A stretch of DNA of 64,000 bases from Candidatus Flemingiibacterium sp. (GCA_045632605.1 JAZQXA010000097.1:18020-82019); one strand, 5' to 3'; positions 3,661 through 15,970 are shown, counted from the stretch's first letter. A program made the numbers and translations. The notes: generated by a model not told the origin, from the sequence alone.

Positions 3661-4755
3661 TCAAAAATTATAGATAGTACCGGTCTTTGCAGACTCGTAG
3701 ATGCCCTCCAGTATCTTTGTTACGCAGAGAGCCTGCTCGGGAAGAACGCAGGGGTCTTTATCCTCTCTGATAGCGGCAATCCACTGACGTGCTTCAACAT
3801 CTGCACTTGTAAGATCACCGCTGCCCTCGTTGAAAGCAACGCCGCCTCTGGTGAGGTCGGGAGTTGTAACGCACTGTCTGCCGTTAATGATGGAATTTAT
3901 ACGAAGACCGTTCATCATATCGCCGCCTGCCTTTGTTCCGCAGACGGATGTTACTGCTTCGCGAACATCGAGAGTGTTGAGCGCCCAGGCGGACTCAAGA
4001 ACTATAGTGGCACCGTTTTCCATAACGATGAATCCGAATGCGGAATCTTCAACGGTGAACTTTTCGGGGTCCCAGTCGCCCCATGCGTTTCCGGTGCGTG
4101 TGTCGTTGTTAAGTTTATGATATGCTGTTCCGACGCAGTACTTAGGCTTGTAGTTGTTCATCATCCAAAGTGTCAGGTCGAGAGCGTGTGTTCCTATATC
4201 AATAAGAGGTCCGCCGCCTTGTTCGTATTCATTTAGGAATACGCCCCATGTCGGAACGGCACGGCGGCGAAGTGCGGTTGCCTTGGCGTAGTAAATATCG
4301 CCGAAGGTGCCTTTTTCTGCTTCTTCATGCATAAATTCCGAATCCGGGCGGTAACGTCCCTGATATCCGATGGTAAGCTTTTTGCCGGTACGCTTTGATG
4401 CTTCGAGCATTTTTTCTGCCTCTGCGGAGTTGATTGCCATCGGCTTTTCGCACATAACATGCTTGCCCGATTCGAGCGCATCAACGGTGATAAAGCTGTG
4501 GCTTCTGTTCGGTGTACAAACGTGGATAACATCAATACTTGTATCTTTAAGCAGTTCTTTATAGTCTGTGTAAATTTTTGCATTAGGAGTTCCAAACTCC
4601 TTTGCGGAGGATTCTGCTCTATCTTTTATGATATCGCAGAAAGCGACCATTTCAACGCCGGCGATTTTTTTTAGGGCAGGCATATGCTTTTTAGTGGCTA
4701 TGCCGCCGCATCCAATCATGCCGATGCGGATGGTCTTGTCGGTATTTGCAGTCAT
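3661..4755 (-). CDS. Gfo/Idh/MocA family NAD(P)-dependent oxidoreductase
   Basis: 364 aa. Rossmann motif IGMIGCGGIA and EKP motif MCEKPMA. RBS GGAGG lies upstream of ATG 4755. Confidence 0.85.
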   Translation of the reverse strand: MTANTDKTIRIGMIGCGGIATKKHMPALKKIAGVEMVAFCDIIKDRAESSAKEFGTPNAKIYTDYKELLKDTSIDVIHVCTPNRSHSFITVDALESGKHVMCEKPMAINSAEAEKMLEASKRTGKKLTIGYQGRYRPDSEFMHEEAEKGTFGDIYYAKATALRRRAVPTWGVFLNEYEQGGGPLIDIGTHALDLTLWMMNNYKPKYCVGTAYHKLNNDTRTGNAWGDWDPEKFTVEDSAFGFIVMENGATIVLESAWALNTLDVREAVTSVCGTKAGGDMMNGLRINSIINGRQCVTTPDLTRGGVAFNEGSGDLTSADVEARQWIAAIREDKDPCVLPEQALCVTKILEGIYESAKTGTIYNF

Positions 4756-4767
4756 TATGAACTACCT

Positions 4768-4834
4768 CCAAAATAAAAAATTAACCGTACGACGCGCAGC
4801 GCCCATAATCCTTGACGTGCGTATGCCGTACGGT
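4768..4834 (-). terminator. Terminator-like hairpin plus U-tract inside the leader of the 4755 operon (possible attenuator)
   Basis: On the minus strand ACCGTACG (4834-4827) pairs with CGTACGGT (4791-4784), with inner ACGC/GCGT pairs. It is followed directly by TAATTTTTTATTTT and then the GGAGG RBS. Confidence 0.45.
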
Positions 4835-4837
4835 ATA

Positions 4838-4866
4838 ATGATACCCTTTTTTTTTTTAAAAGTCAA
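4838..4866 (-). promoter_or_regulatory. Candidate promoter of the oxidoreductase/isomerase operon
   Basis: On the minus strand: TTGACT (4866-4861), 17-nt spacer (TTT, A11, GGG), TATCAT (4843-4838). Confidence 0.45.
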
Positions 4867-4933
4867 TCCTTTTTGGAAAAAAACTTGTTTTTATGCGCAA
4901 TTTTGCGTAAATTTTTACCATTTTAAATTTTGC

Positions 4934-5275
4934 TTACTTTATATAATATGTATAGTAGACGATAATGGTTCGTTCACGTCCGTTTTGAGTTAAGTCAGGG
5001 GCGGTTAACATGGCTCCGTCGTTGCTCATAAGCTCCCATGCACGGAGCTCCGTCACCTTACAGCGAAAGACGATATCAGAGCTTGAGAGCACAATAAATT
5101 CGTCGTCCTTAATCGAAAGTGAGCCGGCGTGACCGATGACAGTATCCTTGCCGTCCGCTTCACGCTCTGTGCAGTATTTTATCGCACGTCCCGAAAGATG
5201 CTTTGCCATTTCTATGCGGAATGCGACGGAGTTTTCGTTCTTGGGTTTAAAAAGCTTTTTTATGAAACCAAACAT
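4934..5275 (-). CDS. Hypothetical protein (113 aa)
   Basis: From ORF 4934..5329. I prefer the start at MFGFIKKLF (ATG 5275). The predicted sequence looks strand-rich. I recognise no motif. Confidence 0.5.
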   Translation of the reverse strand: MFGFIKKLFKPKNENSVAFRIEMAKHLSGRAIKYCTEREADGKDTVIGHAGSLSIKDDEFIVLSSSDIVFRCKVTELRAWELMSNDGAMLTAPDLTQNGRERTIIVYYTYYIK

Positions 5276-5344
5276 TGTTTTATTTCCTCTCTGAATATAT
5301 ATATGCTTATGATACATCTTTTCATGCAAAATGTCAACTGAATT

Positions 5345-5376
5345 TTCTAAAAATAAGGCACGCCGGTCAGCGTGCC
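5345..5376 (-). terminator. Intrinsic terminator after the amidohydrolase gene
   Basis: Stem GGCACGC (5357-5363) pairs with GCGTGCC (5370-5376). On the minus strand it is followed by TTATTTTTAG. Confidence 0.75.
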
Positions 5377-5383
5377 CGTATAA

Positions 5384-6370
5384 TTATTTTTTAAAGAGTC
5401 TTGCTGCGTTGGAATAAAAGAGCTTTTCAACGGCATCCTCATTAAGGTCGGTGAGAATGCAGGCTTCTCTTGTTGCCATGAGGTTTTCGGTTCCGATAAG
5501 CCAAGTGTTAAAATCGGTGTTTGAATTAAAATTTTCAAGGTCTTCTTTGTAAATCCAGTAGAAGGTGTCGCCAAGTGATACCTGCTTCCCGACACACATT
5601 GTTATCGGCCAGTCAGAGCCCCACATACAGCGGTCGATTCCGATTTTGTTTATAATTGCAATCATCGCGGGAGATTCGCAAATACCGGAGAAATCGTACC
5701 ACACATTTTCGTAAGGTGCAAGCTCGCCAACTGTTTCTATTGTTGTCCAAGCTGCAAATCCACGTGCCGCATGAGCGAGAATGAGAGTTGCATTCGGATA
5801 ACGCTTTGCCATTTCTTTAATATATCTCATGTTATCTTCGTCAGCCAGAGATTTCGGACGAACCATGTGAAGTGTGATAACAAGCTTTCTTTCATTTGCA
5901 ACTTGCCATACTGTTTCGGGGAGATATTCTCCAATGGAAGCATAATATGTGTCCGGGCGGTCTGCCTGAAGATGATAGCACTTGAAGCCGCAGATTCCGG
6001 GATGAATAAGCTGCCCTTCAATTTCTTCAACGGTGTCGTCCGGGTGGACGAGAATTTCACCGACGTTTTTCGGATATTTTTTCAGTTCTTCAACAAGAAA
6101 GTCTGTCATCTTCTGACGTTCAGGCTTTGCGCGAAGCTCCTTATAGGGATTTGCAATTCCGTTGCAAATTACCTCGCGGTTACCGAAGATAGGTGCGGTA
6201 TCGGCATAATAATCGGTAAAGTTAAGATTTACCGGCTTTATTCCGAAAGGTCTGTCAGACAGATGCATATGCACGTCAAAAATCTTTCCCGGCAGAAATG
6301 CATCAAGCTTCTTGATTGCCTCTAGGTCGCTTGCTGTGTAAACTTCGTCTTTAAAAACTTTCTTTTCCAT
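5384..6370 (-). CDS. Amidohydrolase-2 family metal-dependent hydrolase (lactonase/decarboxylase-type)
   Basis: 328 aa. It shows an HxH near the N-terminus (FDVHMHLSD), then ILAHAARG and WGSDWP, which is the metal-ligand pattern of amidohydrolase_2-type TIM barrels. Confidence 0.7.
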   Translation of the reverse strand: MEKKVFKDEVYTASDLEAIKKLDAFLPGKIFDVHMHLSDRPFGIKPVNLNFTDYYADTAPIFGNREVICNGIANPYKELRAKPERQKMTDFLVEELKKYPKNVGEILVHPDDTVEEIEGQLIHPGICGFKCYHLQADRPDTYYASIGEYLPETVWQVANERKLVITLHMVRPKSLADEDNMRYIKEMAKRYPNATLILAHAARGFAAWTTIETVGELAPYENVWYDFSGICESPAMIAIINKIGIDRCMWGSDWPITMCVGKQVSLGDTFYWIYKEDLENFNSNTDFNTWLIGTENLMATREACILTDLNEDAVEKLFYSNAARLFKK

Positions 6371-6405
6371 GTTTCGTTTGAATCCTTTCCTGTATATTCT
6401 TTTCT

Positions 6406-7251
6406 CTATTTTTTCTTTACCTTGAAAAATGAATTTCTGTATTGATTAGGTGTTTCGCCTGTGTTTTCCTTGAAAACTTTAAAAAATGCAGATTTTGACG
6501 TATATCCGATTTGTTCGTAAATTTCTTCGATTGGCGTGTCTGTATTGCGCAGCATCCATGATGCATATCCAATACGGTGCGAAATTAGCTTGGCATTAAA
6601 ATTTACGCCGTAATTTGTTAGCAACACACGGTTTAACTGTCTGGTTGAAATATGAAGCTTATCAGCGAGGTCGGTTGCCGATAAACACAAATTTTGAGGA
6701 TCTGCAAAGAAATTATCAATGATTTCATTTTTTTCTTTTAGATTTCGGGCGTTATGAGCAGAGTTATTCTGACATTCTTCGTGAATTGAGCGGATTATCT
6801 CAGCTACAAACAGCTGCATTTTTAAATTCATAGTATCTTCTGTGAATATTGGAAATGCATCTTGATCGTTATGTATGCTTTTGCTGAGTGCAAACACGAA
6901 GTCATTAATTTTTATTTTTTTGCAGGAACCAACCATCTTTGAAAGCTCATCAGCCTCAGGCGAGGGGACAAGCTTAAACGGAATGCACGGAATCAAACAG
7001 TCTGTGCTGACATTCAGTATGCGGTGATTTATTTTTGGTGGAATTACAAGAATTTCACCTGCCATAAGTTCATATTTTTTTGAATTTACTTCGAACGTAA
7101 TTTCGCCGCTCAAATCAACAAAGCATTCAAAGCAATCCTCATGCGAATGTATTGTTGTGTAGTATGAGTTATATATATCAGGCCTTTGCGGTGCTTTGGA
7201 GACAGCGAGCATAATTTTATATTTACCGATTGAAAAGGTTTGTACGGGCAT
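6406..7251 (-). CDS. AraC family transcriptional regulator (cupin-like N-domain plus HTH)
   Basis: 281 aa. The C-terminal double HTH (LSATDLADKLHISTRQLNRVL ... GYTSKSAFFKVFKENTGETPNQYR) is typical of AraC/XylS regulators. Confidence 0.85.
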   Translation of the reverse strand: MPVQTFSIGKYKIMLAVSKAPQRPDIYNSYYTTIHSHEDCFECFVDLSGEITFEVNSKKYELMAGEILVIPPKINHRILNVSTDCLIPCIPFKLVPSPEADELSKMVGSCKKIKINDFVFALSKSIHNDQDAFPIFTEDTMNLKMQLFVAEIIRSIHEECQNNSAHNARNLKEKNEIIDNFFADPQNLCLSATDLADKLHISTRQLNRVLLTNYGVNFNAKLISHRIGYASWMLRNTDTPIEEIYEQIGYTSKSAFFKVFKENTGETPNQYRNSFFKVKKK

Positions 7252-7288
7252 GGATTATCCTCATTTCATATAAGATTGTAGGATGCCT

Positions 7289-8122
7289 TTAAGCGAAAGG
7301 TGACGACTCTCTGTACTGTGTCGGAGTCACGCCGATGCGCTCTTTGAAAACTTTGAAGAAAGCTGATTTTGAAGTATATCCTGCTTTTTCATAAATTTCA
7401 TCAATAGGTGTATCTGTGTTTCTGAGTAGCCACTGTGAATATAAAATGCGGCGTGTTATGATTATGTCTGTGTAATTACGGTTGTATTCTTTGTTAAGTA
7501 TACGGTTGAGTTGGCGAACGGATATATGCAGCATATCTGCGAGAACGTCGGCTGATGCTGAAAAATTTTGAACATCCGAAAGAAAATCGTCGATGATGTG
7601 TATTTGATGCTGTTCCGACAGAGTATAATCCGATTCAGAAATATTGTTTTTTTCTGTAACCATTAACACAAGCTCTGAAAAAATCATTTGAGCCACATTT
7701 TTCTTCCAATCGAAAAAATAGGGGTTTTTTGATATGTTGTTTTTTACAATAGAGTCAAACAGTGAACCAAAAAGCTCTGAACCCTTGAAATGCAGAAATG
7801 GGTGGACCATCTGTGAAAATTCTTTGTTTTTGGGAGTTTGATCCATATCAAATTGCAAGCAGTCAAGCCTGGAATCGGGAGAAAGCTGTTTTACGTAGTG
7901 AGTTGCCGGAGGAGCAATGATGATGGCATCACCTGCCGATATATTTAGTGTTGTTCCTTCGATAAGAAATTCAGCGGTTCCGGAATGGAGATAAAATAAC
8001 TCATATTTATCTTGATGAGAATGCTCGGGATACGAAAACATTCTTGTTACATCAAAATGAAAATCGGTAATTATACTTATATTGAAAGTGAATTCTCCCA
8101 TAGAATACTGTATCCGAGCCAT
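7289..8122 (-). CDS. AraC family transcriptional regulator, paralog of 6406..7251
   Basis: 277 aa with the same architecture. The C-terminal block RNTDTPIDEIYEKAGYTSKSAFFKVFKERIGVTPTQYR is nearly identical to its neighbour. Confidence 0.85.
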   Translation of the reverse strand: MARIQYSMGEFTFNISIITDFHFDVTRMFSYPEHSHQDKYELFYLHSGTAEFLIEGTTLNISAGDAIIIAPPATHYVKQLSPDSRLDCLQFDMDQTPKNKEFSQMVHPFLHFKGSELFGSLFDSIVKNNISKNPYFFDWKKNVAQMIFSELVLMVTEKNNISESDYTLSEQHQIHIIDDFLSDVQNFSASADVLADMLHISVRQLNRILNKEYNRNYTDIIITRRILYSQWLLRNTDTPIDEIYEKAGYTSKSAFFKVFKERIGVTPTQYRESSPFA

Positions 8123-8319
8123 TCATTAACCTCCATATTGAATATTAATGTTACCATAAAATAACGAATTTTATAACGGTATCAGTTCCGAATTTTCAAC
8201 AATAAATGTTACAAACGGATAACGGTGTAAATACAGTGAAGAATATACTGTCAAATTCGACAAAATGAATCGTTGGTTTTGTGCGCATCGCCAAAAAAAT
8301 ATTAATTTCCATATCCTAC

Positions 8320-8347
8320 TTGAAATTTCGAAAAAATATGGTATATT
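8320..8347 (+). promoter_or_regulatory. Candidate promoter of the ABC/DUF1854 operon
   Basis: TTGAAA (8320-8325), 16-nt spacer, TGgTATATT (extended -10, hexamer 8342-8347). This leaves a ~125-nt leader before ATG 8477. Confidence 0.45.
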
Positions 8348-8476
8348 TATTATAACATATTGTTTTTGATTGTCAATTGTTTTTTTAAAATAAAATAATT
8401 AAGTCATGAAAAAACGGTATGTCAAAATTTTGAAAGGAGAAGACTGCGCACAAAAATAGCACGGTCGTACACCTTT

Positions 8477-10942
8477 ATGCTGCCACTTGACAAGCTGTCC
8501 GAAGAAGCGCGTATCGGATTTGACGAACGAGGGATAGATTCGGGTAAATTCGATATTGTACTCGAACTTGATCTTGATCATGAAGGAAATTTCGGAGAGA
8601 CGTTCCTCGCTTTCAGCAGTGAAGAAAAAAAGCTTTGGGCGATGTCGGTAACGTCAGACAACGACACTGTAGAAAAACGCAAGAAGGCACGAAAAGCAGC
8701 AGAAGCTGCAAAGGCGAAGTCAGACAAAAAGGCGAAAGAGAAGAATGATGAAGCATTCACACCCGACCTTTACAAAAATGCGGTACTGCGTGTTTTTGAT
8801 ATGAAGCGTGTTTCGGATGCTTATGTTGACAATTTTGTTTCGTCAAACCGTTTGCTTGCCAAGGATCATCCTCACGAAATTGAGATTACTCCAAGTGATG
8901 TAAAGCTTGATTACGACGAGGAAAAGAAACTTCAGAAGAAGCGCGATGAGGATGCAACAACTGTTATCATCGCATATTCGACAAATGCTAAAAAACGCAA
9001 GCTCTTTGCATTCGTTGACCTCATGAACCGCCTTATCAGAGGTGATGATGTCAAGGACGATGACCCTATTTTCGAGCAATTTAACGCTAAATGCCCGAAA
9101 TGCGGACGTGTTTACGATGACCAGGAGCGAAAAATTTGTAATCACTGCACCAATCGCAAAGCGGTATTTGTAAGACTTCTCGGATATTTTAAGCCATTCA
9201 AGATCCAGCTTATCACAGTGCTTATCTGCATGCTTGCTACATCCGGCATACAGCTTATAAACCCGATAATTTCAAATCTAATACTCTACGACCAGGTTAT
9301 CTCCGAGCCAGGATTTATCGCCGGGAAAGAGGTTGGTACGCTTCACAGCGAAAACTGGCTTCTTATTGTGGTCGGCGGAATATTTGCCATAGCTTTGCTG
9401 TCACTTGGCGTTTCGATACTCCAGAACCGCGCAAATGCCACCATGTCAACAAAGGTGACGCTTAATATGAAGCTCGATATATTCACGGCGCTGCAAAATC
9501 TTTCACTGTCGTTCTTCAATAATAACCAGACGGGACGACTCATTACGAGAGTTAATTACGATGCTGACAGAATACGTGCATTTTTCATCGACGGTGTGCC
9601 GAATTTTGTTATAAACGCTGTTAACTTTATCGGTCTTACGATTTTCCTGTTTATCCTTAACTGGAAGCTGACGCTTATTGTCTTTATTCCGGTTCCGATA
9701 ATTGTCTGCATATTCAAATTCATGCTCCCGAAGCTTTGGAGAATGTATTCGAAGCAGTGGCGGCGTTCTTCGAGTCTTAACGCAATTCTTGGTGATTCGC
9801 TTACCGGTGTTCGAGTAGTTAAGGCGTTTTCAAAAGAAGCAGAGGAAACAGCACGCTTCTATGAGTATGCCGAGAGATTGACCAAAGCAAACTTGCAGAC
9901 GAATCTCGTTTCGCTGACTATTTTCCCGGTAGTCGGACTGCTTATCGGACTTTCGAGCCAGGTTATCTGGGGATTCGGCGGTCTTGAGGTTATGGGCAAG
10001 AACATGACATACGGTGACTTTGCGACATATCTCGGTTACATCGGAATGATTTTCGGACCGCTTAATTTCTTTACGAATTTTACAAATATGATAACCGATA
10101 CGGCAAACTGTGCACAGCGTATGTTTGAGATAGTTGATGCCGTTCCCGAAATAACCGACGCAAAAGACCCGATACATCTTGAAAAACTGAATGGCGATAT
10201 TGAATTTAAAAATGTCTGCTTCCATTATGCGGCAAACAGACCGATTCTCAAAAACGTGTCACTCAAAATTAATGCCGGTGACCACATCGGACTTGTAGGT
10301 CATACGGGAAGCGGAAAATCGACTATCGCAAATCTAATAAACCGACTTTACGACACGATAAGCGGCTCGATACATATTGACGGTTATAACGTCAAGGAGA
10401 TTGAAATGCAGTCGCTCAGAAAAAATATTTCAATCGTATCGCAGGAGATATTCCTTTTTAAAGGAACTATCGCTGATAATATCCGTTATGCAAGACCGGA
10501 AGCGACTATGGATGAAATCATTGCGGCGTCAAAGGCTGCGAATGCTCACGATTTTATTCTTCGTCTGCCGGAAGGTTACGAAACCCTCGTCGGTACGGGA
10601 AGCCGTTCGCTTTCGGGCGGTGAAAAACAGCGTATTTCAATTGCCCGTGCACTGCTGCTTGCTCCGTCGATACTGATTCTTGATGAAGCAACTGCGGCGA
10701 TGGACACGGAAACAGAGCGTCTTATTCAGGATGCGCTCTCCGAGCTTATCAAGGGACGTACCACTATTACCATTGCACACAGACTTTCAACGCTGAAAGA
10801 CTGTAACCACCTTTTTGTAATTGAAAACGGCGAGATTGCCGAGGAAGGCTCACACGCCGAGCTTCTTGCGAAAAAGGGAGTATTCTTCAGACTCTATACA
10901 CTTCAGAATGAGGCGAACAAAAAGATTATCGCCGGAATGTGA
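8477..10942 (+). CDS. ABC exporter half-transporter (TMD+NBD) with ~250-aa cytoplasmic N-terminal extension ending in a 4-Cys zinc ribbon
   Basis: 821 aa. Walker A GHTGSGKST, signature LSGGEKQR, Walker B ILILDEATAAMD, H-loop IAHRLST. Six TM helices begin after about aa 250. The ribbon CPKCGRVYDDQERKICNHC is encoded at 9092-9148. Confidence 0.9.
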   Translation: MLPLDKLSEEARIGFDERGIDSGKFDIVLELDLDHEGNFGETFLAFSSEEKKLWAMSVTSDNDTVEKRKKARKAAEAAKAKSDKKAKEKNDEAFTPDLYKNAVLRVFDMKRVSDAYVDNFVSSNRLLAKDHPHEIEITPSDVKLDYDEEKKLQKKRDEDATTVIIAYSTNAKKRKLFAFVDLMNRLIRGDDVKDDDPIFEQFNAKCPKCGRVYDDQERKICNHCTNRKAVFVRLLGYFKPFKIQLITVLICMLATSGIQLINPIISNLILYDQVISEPGFIAGKEVGTLHSENWLLIVVGGIFAIALLSLGVSILQNRANATMSTKVTLNMKLDIFTALQNLSLSFFNNNQTGRLITRVNYDADRIRAFFIDGVPNFVINAVNFIGLTIFLFILNWKLTLIVFIPVPIIVCIFKFMLPKLWRMYSKQWRRSSSLNAILGDSLTGVRVVKAFSKEAEETARFYEYAERLTKANLQTNLVSLTIFPVVGLLIGLSSQVIWGFGGLEVMGKNMTYGDFATYLGYIGMIFGPLNFFTNFTNMITDTANCAQRMFEIVDAVPEITDAKDPIHLEKLNGDIEFKNVCFHYAANRPILKNVSLKINAGDHIGLVGHTGSGKSTIANLINRLYDTISGSIHIDGYNVKEIEMQSLRKNISIVSQEIFLFKGTIADNIRYARPEATMDEIIAASKAANAHDFILRLPEGYETLVGTGSRSLSGGEKQRISIARALLLAPSILILDEATAAMDTETERLIQDALSELIKGRTTITIAHRLSTLKDCNHLFVIENGEIAEEGSHAELLAKKGVFFRLYTLQNEANKKIIAGM

Positions 10943-10959
10943 TAAGGGAGGACAATATC

Positions 10960-11577
10960 ATGGCAGAAGTTAAGAAAACAGTCGAAAAAGCTAACACCAA
11001 GCCGAAAAACGATATTCTCGGTGACGGAGATGACGGCGACTTAATACTCGAAAACGAGCGTGTTTCAATCGACCTTAATCCAGATAATGCAAAATTCAGC
11101 CGTTCGGGCGGTGACCTTATTTCGCTTGAAATTGTTAACAGTGAGGGGGAAATCGAAAAATTTGAGCGTGTTGTTGTACTTCGCTCGTTCCCGGTTACAA
11201 ATCCCGATGAGTTTTTGTCTGTGCGTGAGCCTGACTCGAAAAAGCAGGGACGCGGCAAGGAAATCGGTATGATACGCCGTATCACCGATTTTGACGGGGA
11301 AACACGCACGCTTCTTTTGGAGGAGCTTGACCGAAGATATTTCACTCCGCAGATTAAGCGTATTTTTTCGGTAAAGGATAAGTTTGGCTATCTTTACTGG
11401 GAGGCTGAAACAACTGCAGGACACGTTACGTTTGTAATGAACAATCCTTTTTCAAACATCCGTGTGCTTGAGGACGGAAGAATACTCATTAATGATATTG
11501 ACGGAAATGTTTTTGAGATACACTCTTCCGAAAAACTTGATGCGGCAAGTCTTAAAAAGATAGAAATCTACCTCTGA
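10960..11577 (+). CDS. DUF1854-like soluble protein encoded between the two ABC genes
   Basis: From ORF 10939..11577 (GTG). I prefer ATG 10960, 7 nt after AAGGGAGGA. It has no TM segment. The blocks RSFPVTNPDEFLSV, LLLEELDRRYFTPQIKRI and FGYLYWEAETTAGHVTF recall DUF1854 from memory. This is not verified. Confidence 0.6.
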   Translation: MAEVKKTVEKANTKPKNDILGDGDDGDLILENERVSIDLNPDNAKFSRSGGDLISLEIVNSEGEIEKFERVVVLRSFPVTNPDEFLSVREPDSKKQGRGKEIGMIRRITDFDGETRTLLLEELDRRYFTPQIKRIFSVKDKFGYLYWEAETTAGHVTFVMNNPFSNIRVLEDGRILINDIDGNVFEIHSSEKLDAASLKKIEIYL

Positions 11578-11601
11578 TAATTAAGGGAAGGAAGTGAGTC
11601 T

Positions 11602-13836
11602 ATGCGACTTATGTTTGAACTGCCCGAAAAAGAGAGGGCAGTATTCGATTCGGCGGTGCAGAGCGATGAAAAGCTCATGTACTGCATCCCGTTTAATATT
11701 CTTGAAGACAGATTTGTATCCGGTTTTATTGCAATAACGAACAGGAAAATTTATAAAATCCTCGATGACAGTCTGCTCGCGGAATATAATATCGCAGGTG
11801 CGACCGGCTTCAAAACAGAGGTTATGTACGGAAGCTGCGGATTTTACGCCGATTTCGGAGAGGGAACGACACTTATCTGTCAGTTTATTTCGGGACGTCA
11901 TTTGCCGAGATATGCTGTAATCGTAAAGGCTTGTGAGATACTCGCCGAGGATTCATCAAAGGATGAGCCCATAACCAACTCGGAAAAGGAGCGTTTCTGC
12001 CCGAAGTGCGGACGTCCGTTTGTTCGAGGAACCAATATTTGTCCGTATTGCCTTGACCACATGGAGGTTTATAAAAAAATCTTCGCGATGACAAAGGGAC
12101 TCAGGCTTATGATGTGCTTTCCGTTCATCGTCGCCGTATTCAACGTAATTTTCCAGTTCGTTGTACCGCATATTCAGAAGATTGCGCTTAATAATTATAT
12201 CCTCGATGAAGCAAAATACGGTCAGGCTGACATGATGACTGAGTTTATACTCATCGTTGCGGCGATTGTTTCGCTTGATTTGTTCCACCGTGCGCTTGCT
12301 GTGCTTCAAAGCCGTTTGTCGGCGATAACCGGTAACCGCTTTACACTCATGATGCGTACACTGCTTTATGAAAAGATACAGTCCCTCTCGCTGTCATCCG
12401 TTCAGCGAAAATCAACGGGTGACCTTATGGGACGTATAAACGGTGACGTAAACGTGGCGCAGGACTTTATCGTAAATCAGCTTCCGAATCTGTTTGTTCA
12501 GGTCTTTTCGTTCCTTACGGGACTTGTTGTCATGCTGGTGATAAGCCCGATAATGGCACTGTTTGTCTTTGTTCCGATTCCGTTTGTGGTGTTTCTCATT
12601 TCGAAATTCTGGAAGTCGGTACAGCTTCGCAACCGCCGTTTGTGGGTGCTTGGTCAGAGAACAAATCATCTGCTTCAGGACATACTTAACGGTATACGTG
12701 TCGTAAAGTGCTTCGGACGTGAGGAAAGTGAAATCAAACGCTTCAAGGATGCCTCTGTAAAACACGCGAGTCAGAATGAAAAGAACGCAAAGGTGTTCGA
12801 TACAATATTTCCTCTGCTCGGATTTGCGATAAAGCTGGGAAGTTATTTTATTCTTTGGTACGGAAACTGGCAGCTCTTCCACGGTGAAATGCTTGTCGGT
12901 GAACTGCACCAGATAAACTCTTATGCAAATATCATCTATGCACCGCTTATGTACATAACATTTATTCCGCGAAATATTTCGAACTTCCTTACAAGTCTGT
13001 CGAAGATTTTCGAAATAATCGAGGAAAATCAGGAGGTGCAGGATATTGACCTGCCGATTGATATACGCATTGAGGGTGAGGTTGATATTAAGAATGTGAC
13101 ATTCGGTTACGAGAGCTACAATCCCGTACTCGAAAATGTCAGCTTCCATGTTGAACCCGGCGAGATGATAGGTATTGTTGGACATTCCGGCTCGGGAAAG
13201 ACTACTCTTATCAATCTTCTTATGCGACTTTATGACGTAAACGAGGGCGAGATAATCATTGATGGCGTAAATATAAAGGATATTTCGCAGAATGCGCTTC
13301 GCACACAGATTGGTGTTGTGCTTCAGGAAACATTCCTTTTCAGCGGAACTATACGCGATAATATCCGCTATGCTATGCCGCACGCGACGGACGAGCAGGT
13401 TATCGCTGCCGCACGCATTGCAAATGCACATGATTTTATTCTCAATTTGCCAGAGGGTTACAACACGTTGGTCGGCGAAAAGGGATATTCGCTTTCCGGC
13501 GGTGAGCGTCAGCGTATTGCGATTGCACGTGCGGTCATACATAATCCGCGAATACTTATTCTCGACGAGGCAACCGCCGCGCTTGACACCGAAACGGAGA
13601 AGCTGATTCAGGATTCGCTTAACAAGCTGACCGAGAACAGAACGGTTTTTGCTATAGCACACCGTCTTTCAACGCTTCGAAATGCGGACAAGCTGCTTGT
13701 GCTTGACAAGGGACGTGTTGCGGAATTCGGAACACACGCCGAGCTTCTCGAAAATCACGGAATTTATTACAAGCTTGTTATGGCACAGCGTAAGATGGCG
13801 CAGTCGGTCGTTGAACAGCAGGGAATTGCAAACTGA
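11602..13836 (+). CDS. ABC exporter half-transporter (TMD+NBD) with ~165-aa cytoplasmic N-terminal extension ending in a 4-Cys zinc ribbon
   Basis: 744 aa. Walker A GHSGSGKTT, signature LSGGERQR, Walker B ILILDEATAALD, H-loop IAHRLST. The ribbon CPKCGRPFVRGTNICPYC is encoded at 11998-12051, just before TM1. Confidence 0.9.
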   Translation: MRLMFELPEKERAVFDSAVQSDEKLMYCIPFNILEDRFVSGFIAITNRKIYKILDDSLLAEYNIAGATGFKTEVMYGSCGFYADFGEGTTLICQFISGRHLPRYAVIVKACEILAEDSSKDEPITNSEKERFCPKCGRPFVRGTNICPYCLDHMEVYKKIFAMTKGLRLMMCFPFIVAVFNVIFQFVVPHIQKIALNNYILDEAKYGQADMMTEFILIVAAIVSLDLFHRALAVLQSRLSAITGNRFTLMMRTLLYEKIQSLSLSSVQRKSTGDLMGRINGDVNVAQDFIVNQLPNLFVQVFSFLTGLVVMLVISPIMALFVFVPIPFVVFLISKFWKSVQLRNRRLWVLGQRTNHLLQDILNGIRVVKCFGREESEIKRFKDASVKHASQNEKNAKVFDTIFPLLGFAIKLGSYFILWYGNWQLFHGEMLVGELHQINSYANIIYAPLMYITFIPRNISNFLTSLSKIFEIIEENQEVQDIDLPIDIRIEGEVDIKNVTFGYESYNPVLENVSFHVEPGEMIGIVGHSGSGKTTLINLLMRLYDVNEGEIIIDGVNIKDISQNALRTQIGVVLQETFLFSGTIRDNIRYAMPHATDEQVIAAARIANAHDFILNLPEGYNTLVGEKGYSLSGGERQRIAIARAVIHNPRILILDEATAALDTETEKLIQDSLNKLTENRTVFAIAHRLSTLRNADKLLVLDKGRVAEFGTHAELLENHGIYYKLVMAQRKMAQSVVEQQGIAN

Positions 13837-13863
13837 CATAAATTTTTGCATGAGGATAAAGAT

Positions 13864-14838
13864 ATGAATCTTAACTTGGAACAAATAAAATCTGTTACAT
13901 TTGGTGCTGTTGATATAACCGAGAATGACGGAGAATTTTCATTTTTCCGATTTACAAAGGAACAAACGAAAATTTATCCGAAATATCGTCCTTCTGACTA
14001 TGATGAACGAAGTCTCACAACAGCAGGAATACGGTTTTCCTTTGTAACTGATTCATCTATGTTTTCATTTGACAGTTCTCATAATAGAGAATGGAGTGCG
14101 GCATATTCTTATTTCGATGTTTATGTAAACGGTTCTTTGGTCGGACACTTTGGACTGAATCACGGCGAAAAAAATTCTCATGCCGAGGTTATGTTGCCGG
14201 GCGGAAACAATGCGATTGAAGTATATTTCCCCTGGAGTAAGGCGGCGTCCGTTTCAAATGTGACACTTGATGACGGAGCAACACTTATACCTAAAAAAAG
14301 GGACAAGGTTGCAATAAACTACGGCGATTCGATAACTCACGGCTATTATGCTGAATATCCGTCGCTGTCATATGCATCACGGATATCACGAGTGCTCGGT
14401 CTTGATTCCTATAACAAGGCTATCGGAGGAGATAAATTTTTTCCGGAGATACTTGAGCTTGATGAGCCCGTTAATCCTGAAATTATCACCGTTGCTTACG
14501 GTATAAATGATTGGTGTACGCAAACTCGCGAGGAACTTACTCATTTTAGCCGTGAATATCTTGTAAGGGTGTCGAAAAAATTTCCGGATGCGAAGATTTT
14601 TGTTATATCCCCAATTTGGCATAAGGGTGGGTATTCGGAAAAGTTTGGCGGAAAATATACCGAGGTACACAGTATTCTTGAAAACAACACATCCGACCTT
14701 GACAATATCATTCTTATTGACGGTAATAAGCTAACACCCCACAACGAAAATTTCTATACTGACGGTACACATCCAAATGACATTTGTTTCAGTATTCACG
14801 CTGAAAATTTAATTCGGGAAATCCGGAAGTATATTTAA
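13864..14838 (+). CDS. SGNH/GDSL family hydrolase with N-terminal beta-rich domain
   Basis: From ORF 13846 (TTG). I prefer ATG 13864, 7 nt after GAGGA. Block I is INYGDSITHGY, block III YGINDW, block V TDGTHPND. Confidence 0.75.
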   Translation: MNLNLEQIKSVTFGAVDITENDGEFSFFRFTKEQTKIYPKYRPSDYDERSLTTAGIRFSFVTDSSMFSFDSSHNREWSAAYSYFDVYVNGSLVGHFGLNHGEKNSHAEVMLPGGNNAIEVYFPWSKAASVSNVTLDDGATLIPKKRDKVAINYGDSITHGYYAEYPSLSYASRISRVLGLDSYNKAIGGDKFFPEILELDEPVNPEIITVAYGINDWCTQTREELTHFSREYLVRVSKKFPDAKIFVISPIWHKGGYSEKFGGKYTEVHSILENNTSDLDNIILIDGNKLTPHNENFYTDGTHPNDICFSIHAENLIREIRKYI

Positions 14839-14859: not shown

Positions 14860-15648
14860 ATGAAAGCATATGAACTTATTGACGAACTTTGCTCCTTTTC
14901 GGAAAAATTTGATAAATCAAGCACAGTTGATACATATAACATTGGTTCTTCGGAGGTTGAAATCTCAAAGGTTGCCGTTACCATGTTCGCAACGCCGTAT
15001 GTTGTTACAGCGGCACACGAATGGGGAGCAGAGCTTGTTATTACGCATGAGCCGCTCTGGTATAACCATGCCGGTCATAAGTCAGACGAAAAGCTTGAGT
15101 GCGAAAAGCGCAGCTTTATCGAAAAAACAGGTATGACGGTTTTTCGCTTTCACGACCATCCGCATTATACAAAGCCGGATATCATCGCGGAGGGGGAATT
15201 GAAGGCTATGGGACTCACGGGGCGAGTTGAGTATACCGATGAATTTGACCTTGTTCGTCTTACGCTTGATGAGCCTATGACCGCGCTGGAACTCGCAAAG
15301 CACATCGAAAAAACGCTTGGTATTCGGCGAGTGGCAATCTGCGGTGAGAGGGACAAAAAATCAACGAAGATTTCGTGTATGTTTGGCGCACCCGGAACGC
15401 AGATTTATGAAATTGCAAAGGATGAATGTGAGATACTTTTAACCGGCGAAGCGTGGGAATGGCGGCTTGGTGAATACGCGAGGGATGCATCACAGCTTGG
15501 ATACAATAAGTCGGTAATATTCATGGGACATATCGGCTCCGAGCGTGAAGGCATGAAATACACTGCCGAAATAATAAAAGAGAAGCATCCCGAGCTTGAC
15601 GTAAAATATTTTGAGTGCGGAGAGGTCTGCACATATACTGACGATTAA
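14860..15648 (+). CDS. Nif3-like dinuclear metal centre family protein
   Basis: 262 aa. His-rich ligand pattern VITHEP, FRFHDHPH and MGHIGSEREG resembles the NIF3/YbgI family. The assignment rests on motifs only. Confidence 0.55.
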   Translation: MKAYELIDELCSFSEKFDKSSTVDTYNIGSSEVEISKVAVTMFATPYVVTAAHEWGAELVITHEPLWYNHAGHKSDEKLECEKRSFIEKTGMTVFRFHDHPHYTKPDIIAEGELKAMGLTGRVEYTDEFDLVRLTLDEPMTALELAKHIEKTLGIRRVAICGERDKKSTKISCMFGAPGTQIYEIAKDECEILLTGEAWEWRLGEYARDASQLGYNKSVIFMGHIGSEREGMKYTAEIIKEKHPELDVKYFECGEVCTYTDD

Positions 15649-15680: not shown

Positions 15681-15929
15681 ATGGATGAAATCAAGGAAAA
15701 AATTGAAGCAGTTATTGCAAAATTAAAGGGCGACGGTAACCTTATGGCGAAGTTTAAGAGTAACCCGATAGCGGCTCTTGAAGATATTCTCGGTGTTGAC
15801 ATTCCCGACGACATTGCCAAAAAGGTGGTCGACGGGGTTAAGGCAAAGCTTGCGGCAGGGGACATTGCTGACAAAGCAGACGACATCAAGGATGCGATAG
15901 GCGGACTTTTTTCAAAGTTCAAAAAATAA
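15681..15929 (+). CDS. Small Lys/Asp/Ala-rich hypothetical protein (82 aa)
   Basis: RBS AGGAGGA lies 7 nt before ATG 15681. It has no signal peptide or TM segment. A terminator follows at 15938..15970. Confidence 0.6.
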   Translation: MDEIKEKIEAVIAKLKGDGNLMAKFKSNPIAALEDILGVDIPDDIAKKVVDGVKAKLAAGDIADKADDIKDAIGGLFSKFKK

Positions 15930-15937
15930 TTTTTAAA

Positions 15938-15970
15938 GGAAGCTCTCACGCTGTGGGAGCTTCCTTTTTC
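15938..15970 (+). terminator. Intrinsic terminator closing the 8.3-16.0 kb operon
   Basis: Stem GGAAGCTCTCAC pairs with GTGGGAGCTTCC (one G-U pair), followed by TTTTTC. Confidence 0.85.

Follow-up and report, generated by a model that had tools for sequence, protein, structure and literature searches.

A conserved DUF1854-associated ABC exporter module with N-terminal extensions ending in putative zinc ribbons in uncultured gut Clostridia

Gene Organization and ATP-Binding Core

The DNA analyzed in this study (hereafter the window) is a stretch of 64,000 nucleotides (nt) from Candidatus Flemingiibacterium sp. (GCA_045632605.1 JAZQXA010000097.1:18020-82019), and all positions are given in window coordinates. 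It contains a three-gene module in which two ATP-binding cassette (ABC) half-transporters, ABC1 (8477-10942, + strand; 821 amino acids, aa) and ABC2 (11602-13836, +; 744 aa), flank a gene encoding a soluble DUF1854 protein (10960-11577, +; 205 aa counted from the ATG). From the N-terminus, each half-transporter comprises a PH-like domain (predicted in ABC2 and putative in ABC1), a putative zinc ribbon, a transmembrane domain (TMD; six helices in ABC1) and a canonical nucleotide-binding domain (NBD). The module is real and strongly conserved in uncultured gut Clostridia, and it is a member of the DUF1854-associated ABC exporters, a family that has been catalogued but not characterised biochemically.

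An earlier description of this locus, made from the sequence without database searches (the sequence-only reading), had reported tight gene junctions, two fully canonical NBDs and an unusually late first membrane helix, all of which were recovered here. The ABC1 stop codon (TGA, 10940-10942) is followed by a ribosome-binding site, AAGGGAGGA, at 10944-10952 and by the DUF1854 ATG at 10960, while an alternative GTG start at 10939 was judged unlikely. The DUF1854 stop lies at 11575-11577 and the ABC2 ATG at 11602, so that the two junctions span 17 nt (ABC1/DUF1854) and 24 nt (DUF1854/ABC2).

Both ABC1 and ABC2 have the composition of type IV (ABCB/MsbA-like) exporter half-transporters, with a TMD (PF00664 ABC_membrane; aa 246-529 in ABC1 and aa 175-449 in ABC2) followed by an NBD (PF00005 ABC_tran; aa 591-740 and aa 510-659, respectively) that carries all of the expected motifs. 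Walker A reads GHTGSGKST in ABC1 (aa 608) and GHSGSGKTT in ABC2 (aa 527), the ABC signature LSGGEKQR and LSGGERQR, and Walker B with its catalytic glutamate ILILDEATAAMD and ILILDEATAALD, and the H-loop IAHRLST occurs in both proteins. Because these four elements are intact in ABC1 and ABC2, both ATP sites look canonical, and no degenerate site was seen in either protein. Hydropathy places the first hydrophobic helix at approximately aa 240-264 of ABC1 and aa 170-188 of ABC2, which agrees with the starts of the ABC_membrane matches and with the earlier estimates of about aa 250 and about aa 165. From the zinc ribbon onward the two proteins are 37% identical in pairwise BLASTP, and their best matches outside the NF052233 family, which is discussed below, are MsbA, HepA, glucan and type I secretion exporters.

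Conservation of the Module Across Related Loci

When genomes, one for each species, were scanned with an alignment of DUF1854 proteins, 80 loci were recovered, all of them from uncultured gut or digester Clostridia (for example Candidatus Flemingiibacterium, Oscillospiraceae and metagenome-assembled genomes, MAGs, labeled "Eubacteriales"). When the window proteins were compared by BLAST with all open reading frames (ORFs) of these loci, the order ABC1-DUF1854-ABC2 was found in every locus with a long enough contig. Orthologues of ABC1 (71 loci) are 48-91% identical and those of ABC2 60-95% identical. The same three-gene order is kept in three distant loci (L084, L092 and L093), where N-domain identity falls to 24-27%, and in these distant relatives the upstream transporter stays ABC1-like and the downstream one ABC2-like. 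The persistence of distinct ABC1-type and ABC2-type lineages points to an old duplication and to an obligate pair.

Two variants of the layout were also observed. In one locus (L029, 10664-15084, +), the ABC2-type gene is duplicated in tandem (737 and 736 aa) after ABC1-DUF1854. Two others (L089, 832-6046, and L090, 282-5496, both +) have a looser arrangement of DUF1854, an unannotated protein of approximately 253 aa, two GNAT acetyltransferases and an 810-aa ABC2-type transporter.

Conservation and Paralogy of the N-Terminal Extensions

Each extension ends in a four-cysteine ribbon ahead of the first membrane helix (TM1): CPKC-x11-CNHC in ABC1 (9092-9148, +), located about 15 residues before TM1, and CPKC-x10-CPYC in ABC2 (11998-12051, +). 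The sequence-only reading had called both CxxC-x10/11-CxxC ribbons at exactly these positions. All four cysteines are kept in 71/71 ABC1 orthologues and 78/78 ABC2 orthologues, and the ribbons may bind zinc. Matches to the Pfam families Zn_Ribbon_1, DZR and Zn_ribbon_15 all fell below threshold, and in the AlphaFold2 (AF2) model described below the ribbon segment of ABC2 has a pLDDT of about 80. In the ABC1-type orthologue of L093 (2211-4460, +; 749 aa), the CxxC...CxxC pattern was not detected, and the ribbon may have been lost in this lineage.

Conservation extends well beyond the ribbons. The ABC1 ribbon has a mean identity of 73% among orthologues and the ABC1 N-region, which is variable in length, 43%, and the ABC2 N-domain is about as conserved as its own TMD (63% versus 67%). 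The ribbon starts at aa 118-260 among ABC1 orthologues and at aa 131-170 (median 133) among ABC2 orthologues. The N-termini themselves, MLPLDKL... in ABC1 and M(K/R)LM(Y/F)(D/E)LP... in ABC2, are conserved from the first residues, so the start codons are not miscalled. Absence of the extensions from orthologues, which would have spoken for wrongly placed starts, was not observed, as they are conserved in all orthologues (approximately 70 per half).

Pairwise BLASTP detected similarity between ABC1 and ABC2 only from the ribbon onward. Profile-profile comparison (hhalign) of the whole N-regions including the ribbon aligned ABC1 to ABC2 with a probability of 96.7% (E 4.7e-10), and with the ribbon removed and a more diverse ABC2-type profile the match was retained over 120 columns (probability 95.5%, E 1.3e-8). 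All three segments that had been aligned by eye in the sequence-only reading were reproduced in the same register. The ABC1 N-terminal domain (aa 1-200; 8477-9076, +) is thus paralogous to the PH-like domain of ABC2 and carries two insertions that vary among orthologues, which the profile alignment places at approximately aa 55-99 and aa 131-158. A Lys/Ala/Glu tract that had been noticed earlier, KRKKARKAAEAAKAKSDKKAKEKN, lies at aa 67-90 (nt 8675-8746), inside the first of these insertions.

Fold and Distribution of the N-Terminal Module

The structure of ABC2 aa 1-160 was modeled with AF2 from an alignment of 54 diverse homologues, and secondary structure was assigned by DSSP. The model (pLDDT 91, pTM 0.79) comprises a short helix, seven β-strands, a long C-terminal helix, a linker and the ribbon; within the PH-like domain proper (aa 1-118; 11602-11955, +) these elements are a helix at aa 9-18, seven strands within aa 25-95 and a helix at aa 97-116. 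Foldseek searches against the PDB returned almost exclusively PH/PTB folds among the top 50 matches, including the bacterial PH structures 3dcx and 3b77, with marginal E values (6e-3 to 7e-2) and probabilities of 0.75-1.0. On the basis of this model, the ABC2 N-domain is assigned to the PH-like fold superfamily, and the profile alignment suggests that the ABC1 N-domain probably adopts the same fold. The PH/GRAM-like character that had been guessed at earlier is therefore backed by model and structural matches for ABC2 and would extend to ABC1 through the profile alignment.

No Pfam family scored above threshold for the N-terminal regions and no PDB sequence matched them, so that a well-characterised domain with a known role, a possibility that the sequence-only reading had raised against itself, was not found among these collections. 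None of the Pfam bacterial PH families (bPH_1 to bPH_6) was listed at E up to 1 for ABC1 or ABC2. Peptidase_C39 was likewise without a match at E up to 1 in either protein, and neither falls into the PCAT families (TIGR01193, TIGR03796).

A word-indexed search with ABC2 aa 1-170 gave 18 matches, mostly fragments, and sequence diversity was taken from an exhaustive phmmer search of 1.84 billion representatives. The latter found 122 matches to the ABC2 N-domain, always at the extreme N-terminus; full-length matches were 712-810 aa long, the rest were fragments, and the loci inspected encoded ABC half-transporters in 8/8 cases. The N-module is thus specific to this transporter family.

The DUF1854 Protein and Its Fusion to ABC1

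The earlier suggestion that the middle protein resembles DUF1854 proved correct: it matches Pfam PF08909 with 136.3 bits (E 7.2e-40; gathering threshold 26.8) over residues 68-202 (model positions 1-128 of 130). Across 18 clostridial DUF1854 homologues there are 81 invariant columns, and a Lys/Glu-rich N-terminal tail varies in length. The AF2 model has a pLDDT of 75.6 overall and about 85 in the core, with aa 1-32 predicted to be disordered, and its architecture consists of two β-rich halves with a helix at the end of each. No significant sequence match was found in the PDB, and no convincing relative was found by Foldseek (TM-score at most 0.26); weak matches were to tandem-OB HIN domains and, with probabilities of 0.15-0.28, to MalK chains and to 3gd7, in which CFTR NBD2 is joined to the regulatory domain of MalK.

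An indication of where DUF1854 acts comes from a natural fusion. A more distant locus, from a termite-gut MAG (L087, 4896-7850, +; also L088), encodes a 984-aa protein consisting of N-domain, TMD, NBD and a C-terminal DUF1854 (PF08909, 51.8 bits, residues 872-979), a layout that speaks for DUF1854 acting where the ABC1 NBD ends at its C-terminus. The ABC2-type gene of L087 lies two genes downstream of the fusion, after a 57-aa ORF and an LRR/Big_2 surface protein. DUF1854-ABC fusions have also been noted by Price et al. (10.1101/072470) and by the Pfam curators.

Relationships of DUF1854 to itself and to the N-domains were considered and rejected. Neither the N-domain profile against DUF1854 nor either DUF1854 half against the PH profile gave an hhalign E below 0.18, so that DUF1854 does not appear to be a further copy of the N-domain, and an internal duplication was rejected at the sequence level (N-half versus C-half, E at least 0.18). 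A tblastn search of DUF1854 against PLSDB plasmids gave no match.

Two low-complexity features were seen within the module. The first ABC1 insertion, with its tract at 8675-8746 (+), and the N-terminal tail of DUF1854 (10960-11055, +) are both rich in Lys, Glu and Ala and both vary strongly in length among orthologues, and the DUF1854 tail is followed by a conserved acidic motif, DDGDLILE.

Family Membership and the Cyanophycin Link

Among NCBIfam models, both transporters score highest against NF052233, "cyanophycin metabolism-associated ABC transporter" (554.3 bits for ABC1 and 519.8 bits for ABC2), followed by MsbA models (446 and 399 bits). The equivalog cut-off of NF052233 is 880 bits and is missed by both proteins; similarly, the middle protein matches NF052234 best, with 80.2 bits against a cut-off of 150. 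The alignment of ABC2 to NF052233 runs from one end to the other (aa 7-737 against positions 15-751 of the 766 in the model), and ABC2 aa 1-160 by itself still matches its N-terminus (aa 6-154 on model positions 14-163; 21 bits, E 8.2e-5), which indicates that the PH-like/ribbon module is a trait of the family and not a peculiarity of this locus. The ABC1 N-region by itself had no match to NF052233 and is linked to it through the hhalign match to ABC2-type profiles.

In two β-proteobacteria, DUF1854, one ABC transporter and two CphA-like synthetases show cofitness, and export of an amino-acid polymer was proposed (Price et al.; 10.1101/072470). A cphA-cphA-ABC cluster without cphB is known from activated-sludge genomes (PMC10687191). 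Our literature search on DUF1854/PF08909, cyanophycin exporters and zinc-ribbon ABC exporters returned, beyond Price et al., only incidental mentions.

Pfam scans covered the window ORFs that reach 150 aa and resemble genuine genes, except a few short ones at the window start. Among the ORFs scanned there was no ATP-grasp/Mur-ligase synthetase (cphA), S51 cyanophycinase (cphB), C39 peptidase or evident cargo gene, in line with the earlier statement that a cargo gene, a peptidase and a cyanophycin synthetase are all missing from the window. The neighbors are housekeeping or unrelated genes (among them ValRS, FtsK, a nucleoside ABC importer, NAD synthase, YceG, ParC/GyrA, a release factor, a Pho system and ArgG). 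Two window ORFs of approximately 900 aa were considered as a local cphA and turned out to be ValRS and FtsK. Ten large flanking ORFs sampled from related loci encode unrelated enzymes with no cphA-type gene among them, and no large flanking gene recurs in more than five loci.

A Small Divergent Gene as a Probable Fourth Component

Clustering of flanking ORFs over all loci identified a sole broadly conserved neighbor, a gene that encodes about 113-117 aa and lies immediately upstream of ABC1 in the opposite orientation. In the window it corresponds to an unannotated gene for a cytoplasmic protein of approximately 113 aa (MFGFIKKLFKPKNENS...YYTYYIK; 4934-5275, - strand), 3.2 kb from ABC1. By tblastn a homologue is present in 46/61 loci with enough upstream DNA, and in about 43 of these it is divergent, at a distance of 40-400 nt on the upstream side of ABC1. 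Its family comprises 1119 proteins, all of approximately 111-117 aa and devoid of Pfam domains, a number similar to the 1,076 DUF1854 matches.

The small protein looks globular, has many invariant residues and lacks a leader or signal peptide. It has no relative in Pfam, NCBIfam or the PDB, the best PDB match, to the C-terminal strands of the MsbA NBD, being insignificant (E 0.07). Comparison with the broad PH-like N-domain profile gave a colinear but weak hhalign match (E 0.0037, probability 9%), and no similarity was found to the ABC1 N-domain, DUF1854 or the narrow ABC2 profile. We consider the small protein a probable fourth component or co-regulated partner. The sequence-only reading had spoken of a three-component exporter; that set is probably incomplete, given that a fourth gene co-occurs in this clade.

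Proposed Mechanism and Alternative Explanations

In the model that we favor, and to which we give an even chance, the cytoplasmic parts of the module form a docking and gating apparatus for hydrophilic macromolecular cargo on a heterodimeric exporter. ABC1 and ABC2 would be the two halves of one exporter of the ABCB/MsbA type (type IV fold) in which both ATP sites are competent for catalysis, a heterodimer being suggested by their invariant co-occurrence and by their distinct lineages. The zinc ribbons would tie the cytoplasmic PH-like β-sandwich of each half to the elbow/TM1 region and so anchor it, placing the two PH-like modules at the inner membrane face beside the cytoplasmic entrance of the transport pathway. 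DUF1854, presumably translated between the two halves from a shared mRNA, would be the third subunit, docked at the C-terminal end of the ABC1 NBD, and the divergently transcribed protein of approximately 113 aa would probably join or control the complex in this clade. Together, these cytoplasmic parts might select a hydrophilic cargo made in the cytoplasm and link cargo binding to the ATPase cycle. Such a cargo would more likely be a polymer or peptide than a drug, and the enzyme that makes it would be encoded elsewhere. The arrangement is modeled by analogy on the N-terminal C39 and C39-like domains of PCAT and HlyB exporters. Cargo docking by the N-modules would seem at least as likely as the regulatory role proposed in the sequence-only reading.

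Several points weigh against this model. As no cargo gene or cargo-making enzyme was found linked to the module among the ORFs scanned in the window and in related loci, the cargo class is drawn from analogy, and as DUF1854 has no convincing fold relative, its role is not readable from structure. We infer the positions of the PH-like domains and of DUF1854 on the transporter. The small gene is absent from the loci of distant relatives and is thus not essential to the core machine. PH-like domains elsewhere also act as lipid binders or as purely regulatory modules, and a housekeeping, variable genomic context would fit a constitutive envelope function equally well. A bolder version of the docking model, which seems to us rather unlikely, is that the module represents a new class of export machine in which the PH/ribbon "N-gates", the NBD-docked DUF1854 and the small free protein form a cytoplasmic cargo-recognition ring. 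The small protein would then possibly be a truncated PH-like paralogue, and the cargo a macromolecule made elsewhere, possibly a non-ribosomal poly-amino acid or a leaderless protein.

The same components could alternatively serve an MsbA-like exporter of lipids, glycolipids or small molecules, with the PH/ribbon modules and DUF1854 acting purely as allosteric ATPase switches that respond to a signal from the cytoplasm or the membrane and bind no cargo. We regard this as a serious possibility, if a minority one with perhaps a quarter of the weight. PH domains commonly bind anionic lipids, and precedents for such switches exist in the C-terminal regulatory domains of MalK, ModC and MetN and in the FHA domains of Rv1747. 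MsbA models are the next best matches after NF052233 (446 and 399 bits), DUF1854 can be fused at the NBD C-terminus, which is the site of the importer regulatory domains, several of its weak Foldseek matches are to MalK chains (probability 0.15-0.28), and the housekeeping context without a linked cargo gene would suit such a role. These structural matches are, however, insignificant (TM-score at most 0.26), three or four dedicated and strongly conserved cytoplasmic modules would be an unusually heavy regulatory load for a lipid flippase, and the one functional genetic study of the family speaks for a polymer (10.1101/072470). The module could also be a clostridial functional equivalent of the β-proteobacterial system, exporting cyanophycin, or a poly-amino acid resembling it, that a CphA-type synthetase elsewhere in the genome would produce. 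NF052233 and NF052234 are the best NCBIfam matches of the transporters and the middle protein, the ABC2 N-domain is colinear with the NF052233 N-terminus (E 8e-5), and the cofitness of DUF1854, ABC, CphA and CphA' (10.1101/072470) as well as the cphA-cphA-ABC cluster (PMC10687191) connect the family to these synthetases. We nevertheless find this identity improbable, as the three scores lie far below the equivalog cut-offs (880, 880 and 150), no synthetase or S51 peptidase occurs among the scanned window ORFs or the ten sampled flanking ORFs, and two paralogous halves flank DUF1854 here, in contrast to one ABC gene in the proteobacterial system.

Export of a leaderless peptide or bacteriocin with PH-like accessory factors would have a precedent in enterocin DD14, which requires DdE and DdF, two proteins with PH domains, in addition to an ABC transporter (PMC8657885, PMC9865063), and the PH-like fold of the ABC2 model is in keeping with such coupling. 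It is, in our view, very improbable at this locus. Next to the module in the window, Pfam recognized no gene for a bacteriocin, for immunity or for modification, the N-domains match no bPH Pfam family, and the only gene that recurs beside the module in relatives encodes a globular protein without leader or signal peptide. In addition, the module is single-copy, lies among housekeeping genes and is conserved over a broad clade, unlike bacteriocin loci. The idea that the long N-termini merely reflect miscalled starts with chance cysteine motifs draws on the lack of a Shine-Dalgarno sequence within 15 nt of the ABC1 ATG and is refuted by the conservation data, which leave it practically no room: in dozens of orthologues, distant ones included, conservation begins with the very first residues, the four cysteines are invariant in 149 orthologues, and the AF2 model of ABC2 aa 1-160 is confident. 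The distant Shine-Dalgarno sequence is accounted for by a covarying hairpin in the leader, which is described further below.

Comparison With Known Systems

The docking model can be set beside the closest known systems. The β-proteobacterial DUF1854/ABC/cphA system (NF052233, NF052234) likewise has a DUF1854 gene beside an ABC half-transporter of TMD-NBD type and carries the same N-terminal module in its family model, and DUF1854-ABC fusions occur in both settings. It differs in having one ABC gene, whereas two diverged halves surround DUF1854 in Clostridia, where the scores are below cut-off, no cphA-type synthetase is linked in the ORFs scanned, and an extra gene of approximately 113 aa and charged variable insertions in the ABC1 N-domain are found. 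PCAT and HlyB exporters (TIGR01193, TIGR01846) resemble the module in their TMD-NBD core and in the fusion of a cytoplasmic accessory domain before TM1 of an ABCB-type half, a domain that in those exporters docks cargo beside the TMD entrance. Their accessory domain has a papain-like fold, in contrast to the PH-like β-sandwich and zinc ribbon predicted here without a C39 Pfam match, and the clostridial module lacks both a cargo with a double-glycine leader and a partner of the membrane-fusion or outer-membrane kind. MsbA/Sav1866 homodimers share the six-helix ABC_membrane domain and the canonical NBD and give the strong second-best NCBIfam matches; they start at the elbow helix, whereas here the halves have a further 165-245 residues at the N-terminus and come with a dedicated soluble subunit, as a gene pair that resembles an obligate heterodimer.

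The individual domains can be compared in the same way. Bacterial PH domains (PHb/bPH; 3dcx, 3b77; PMC2817789) share with the ABC2 model the seven strands capped by a C-terminal helix, but the N-modules lie outside every Pfam bPH family, are fused to a transporter and are followed by a ribbon. DdE and DdF of enterocin DD14 (PMC8657885) are also PH-like proteins working with an ABC exporter, but as separate proteins of a bacteriocin locus. The MalK regulatory domain, the ModC TOBE domain and the MetN C2 domain are β-rich modules at the NBD C-terminus, as is DUF1854 in the L087 fusion; they belong to importer ATPases, the similarity is not significant (probability at most 0.28, TM-score at most 0.17), and DUF1854 is normally a free subunit.

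A PH-like domain and putative zinc ribbon fused before TM1, the hallmark of this family, were described in neither Pfam, the PDB nor the searchable literature. For DUF1854-partnered ABC exporters, functional evidence in searchable papers amounts to one mutant-fitness study, and no structure or substrate was found there. What this locus adds is a fold assignment for the N-module, its presence as diverged copies in both halves, a clostridial architecture that looks heterodimeric and has no cphA linked to it, a natural fusion that places DUF1854, and a small partner gene. The clostridial form is an obligate-looking heterodimer with an asymmetric pair of N-domains, and the "cyanophycin-associated" label should not pass automatically to hundreds of clostridial homologues. 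The module is a good target for structural and genetic work and gives testable hypotheses on the coupling between an ABC exporter and its cargo or signal in the cytoplasm, while no new principle is revealed yet. If the cargo-recognition ring were true, it would be a functional counterpart of the C39 and C39-like domains (CLD) built from a different fold and widespread in gut Clostridia.

Promoter-Like Site and Structured Leader

A consensus scan identified a promoter-like site for the ABC1-DUF1854-ABC2 transcript at 8320-8347 (+), consisting of TTGAAA and TATATT, spaced 16 nt apart, and a TG of the extended -10 type. Across the upstream regions of 23 orthologues, conservation of the block CTTGAAA..TATG.TATATTTAT is 80% or higher.

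RNA folding and covariation delineated a structured ABC1 5' leader (8432-8482, +). In the window clade, the Shine-Dalgarno sequence GAAAGGAGA lies approximately 35 nt ahead of the ABC1 AUG, and none occurs within 15 nt of the ATG. The minimum free energy fold of the leader (-12.8 kcal/mol) pairs AAAGG (8433-8437) with CCUUU (8472-8476) around a variable hairpin formed by 8442-8449 and 8459-8466, and RNAfold gave the same nested fold in most of the 23 close-relative leaders folded. The structure was named from these single-sequence folds and then tested by pair counting. In an alignment of 18 leaders, paired cells reached 80% versus 72% in shuffles (0/500) and the covariation score 0.318 versus 0.183 (0/500); 6/8 inner pairs were changed on both sides, and slid controls were 26-53% paired. 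RNAalifold predicted no pairs on the leader alignment, and an Rfam search over 4500-14500 returned no riboswitch and no known leader or RNA. One relative (L024) is without the hairpin and has the Shine-Dalgarno sequence at normal spacing, and more distant relatives have ordinary ribosome-binding sites. The leader may serve to control translation, or it may represent a split ribosome-binding site.

Neighboring Genes

In the window the small divergent gene is separated from ABC1 by a block of three genes on the - strand (5384-8122): an amidohydrolase (PF04909, Amidohydro_2; 5384-6370), a cupin/AraC-type regulator, putative by its sequence (6406-7251), and a second cupin/AraC-type regulator (7289-8122; Pfam HTH_18/AraC_binding). 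A terminator-like site (5377-5356, -) closes the block, and a perfect-consensus sigma-70-like promoter (8376-8349, -) faces the AraC gene. The block is missing in most relatives, where the small gene abuts ABC1, and it is probably an insertion into the divergent promoter region and would not belong to the system.

Downstream of ABC2 are genes for a GDSL hydrolase (approximately 13864-14838, +) and a NIF3/DUF34 protein (14860-15648, +) and a Lys/Asp/Ala-rich ORF of 82 aa without a Pfam match (15681-15929, +), all three of which are conserved in the closest relatives only. No terminator-like site was seen between ABC2 and these genes, and since the first strong terminator lies at 15935-15967 (+), the GDSL hydrolase, NIF3 and the 82-aa ORF may be co-transcribed with the module in this genome.

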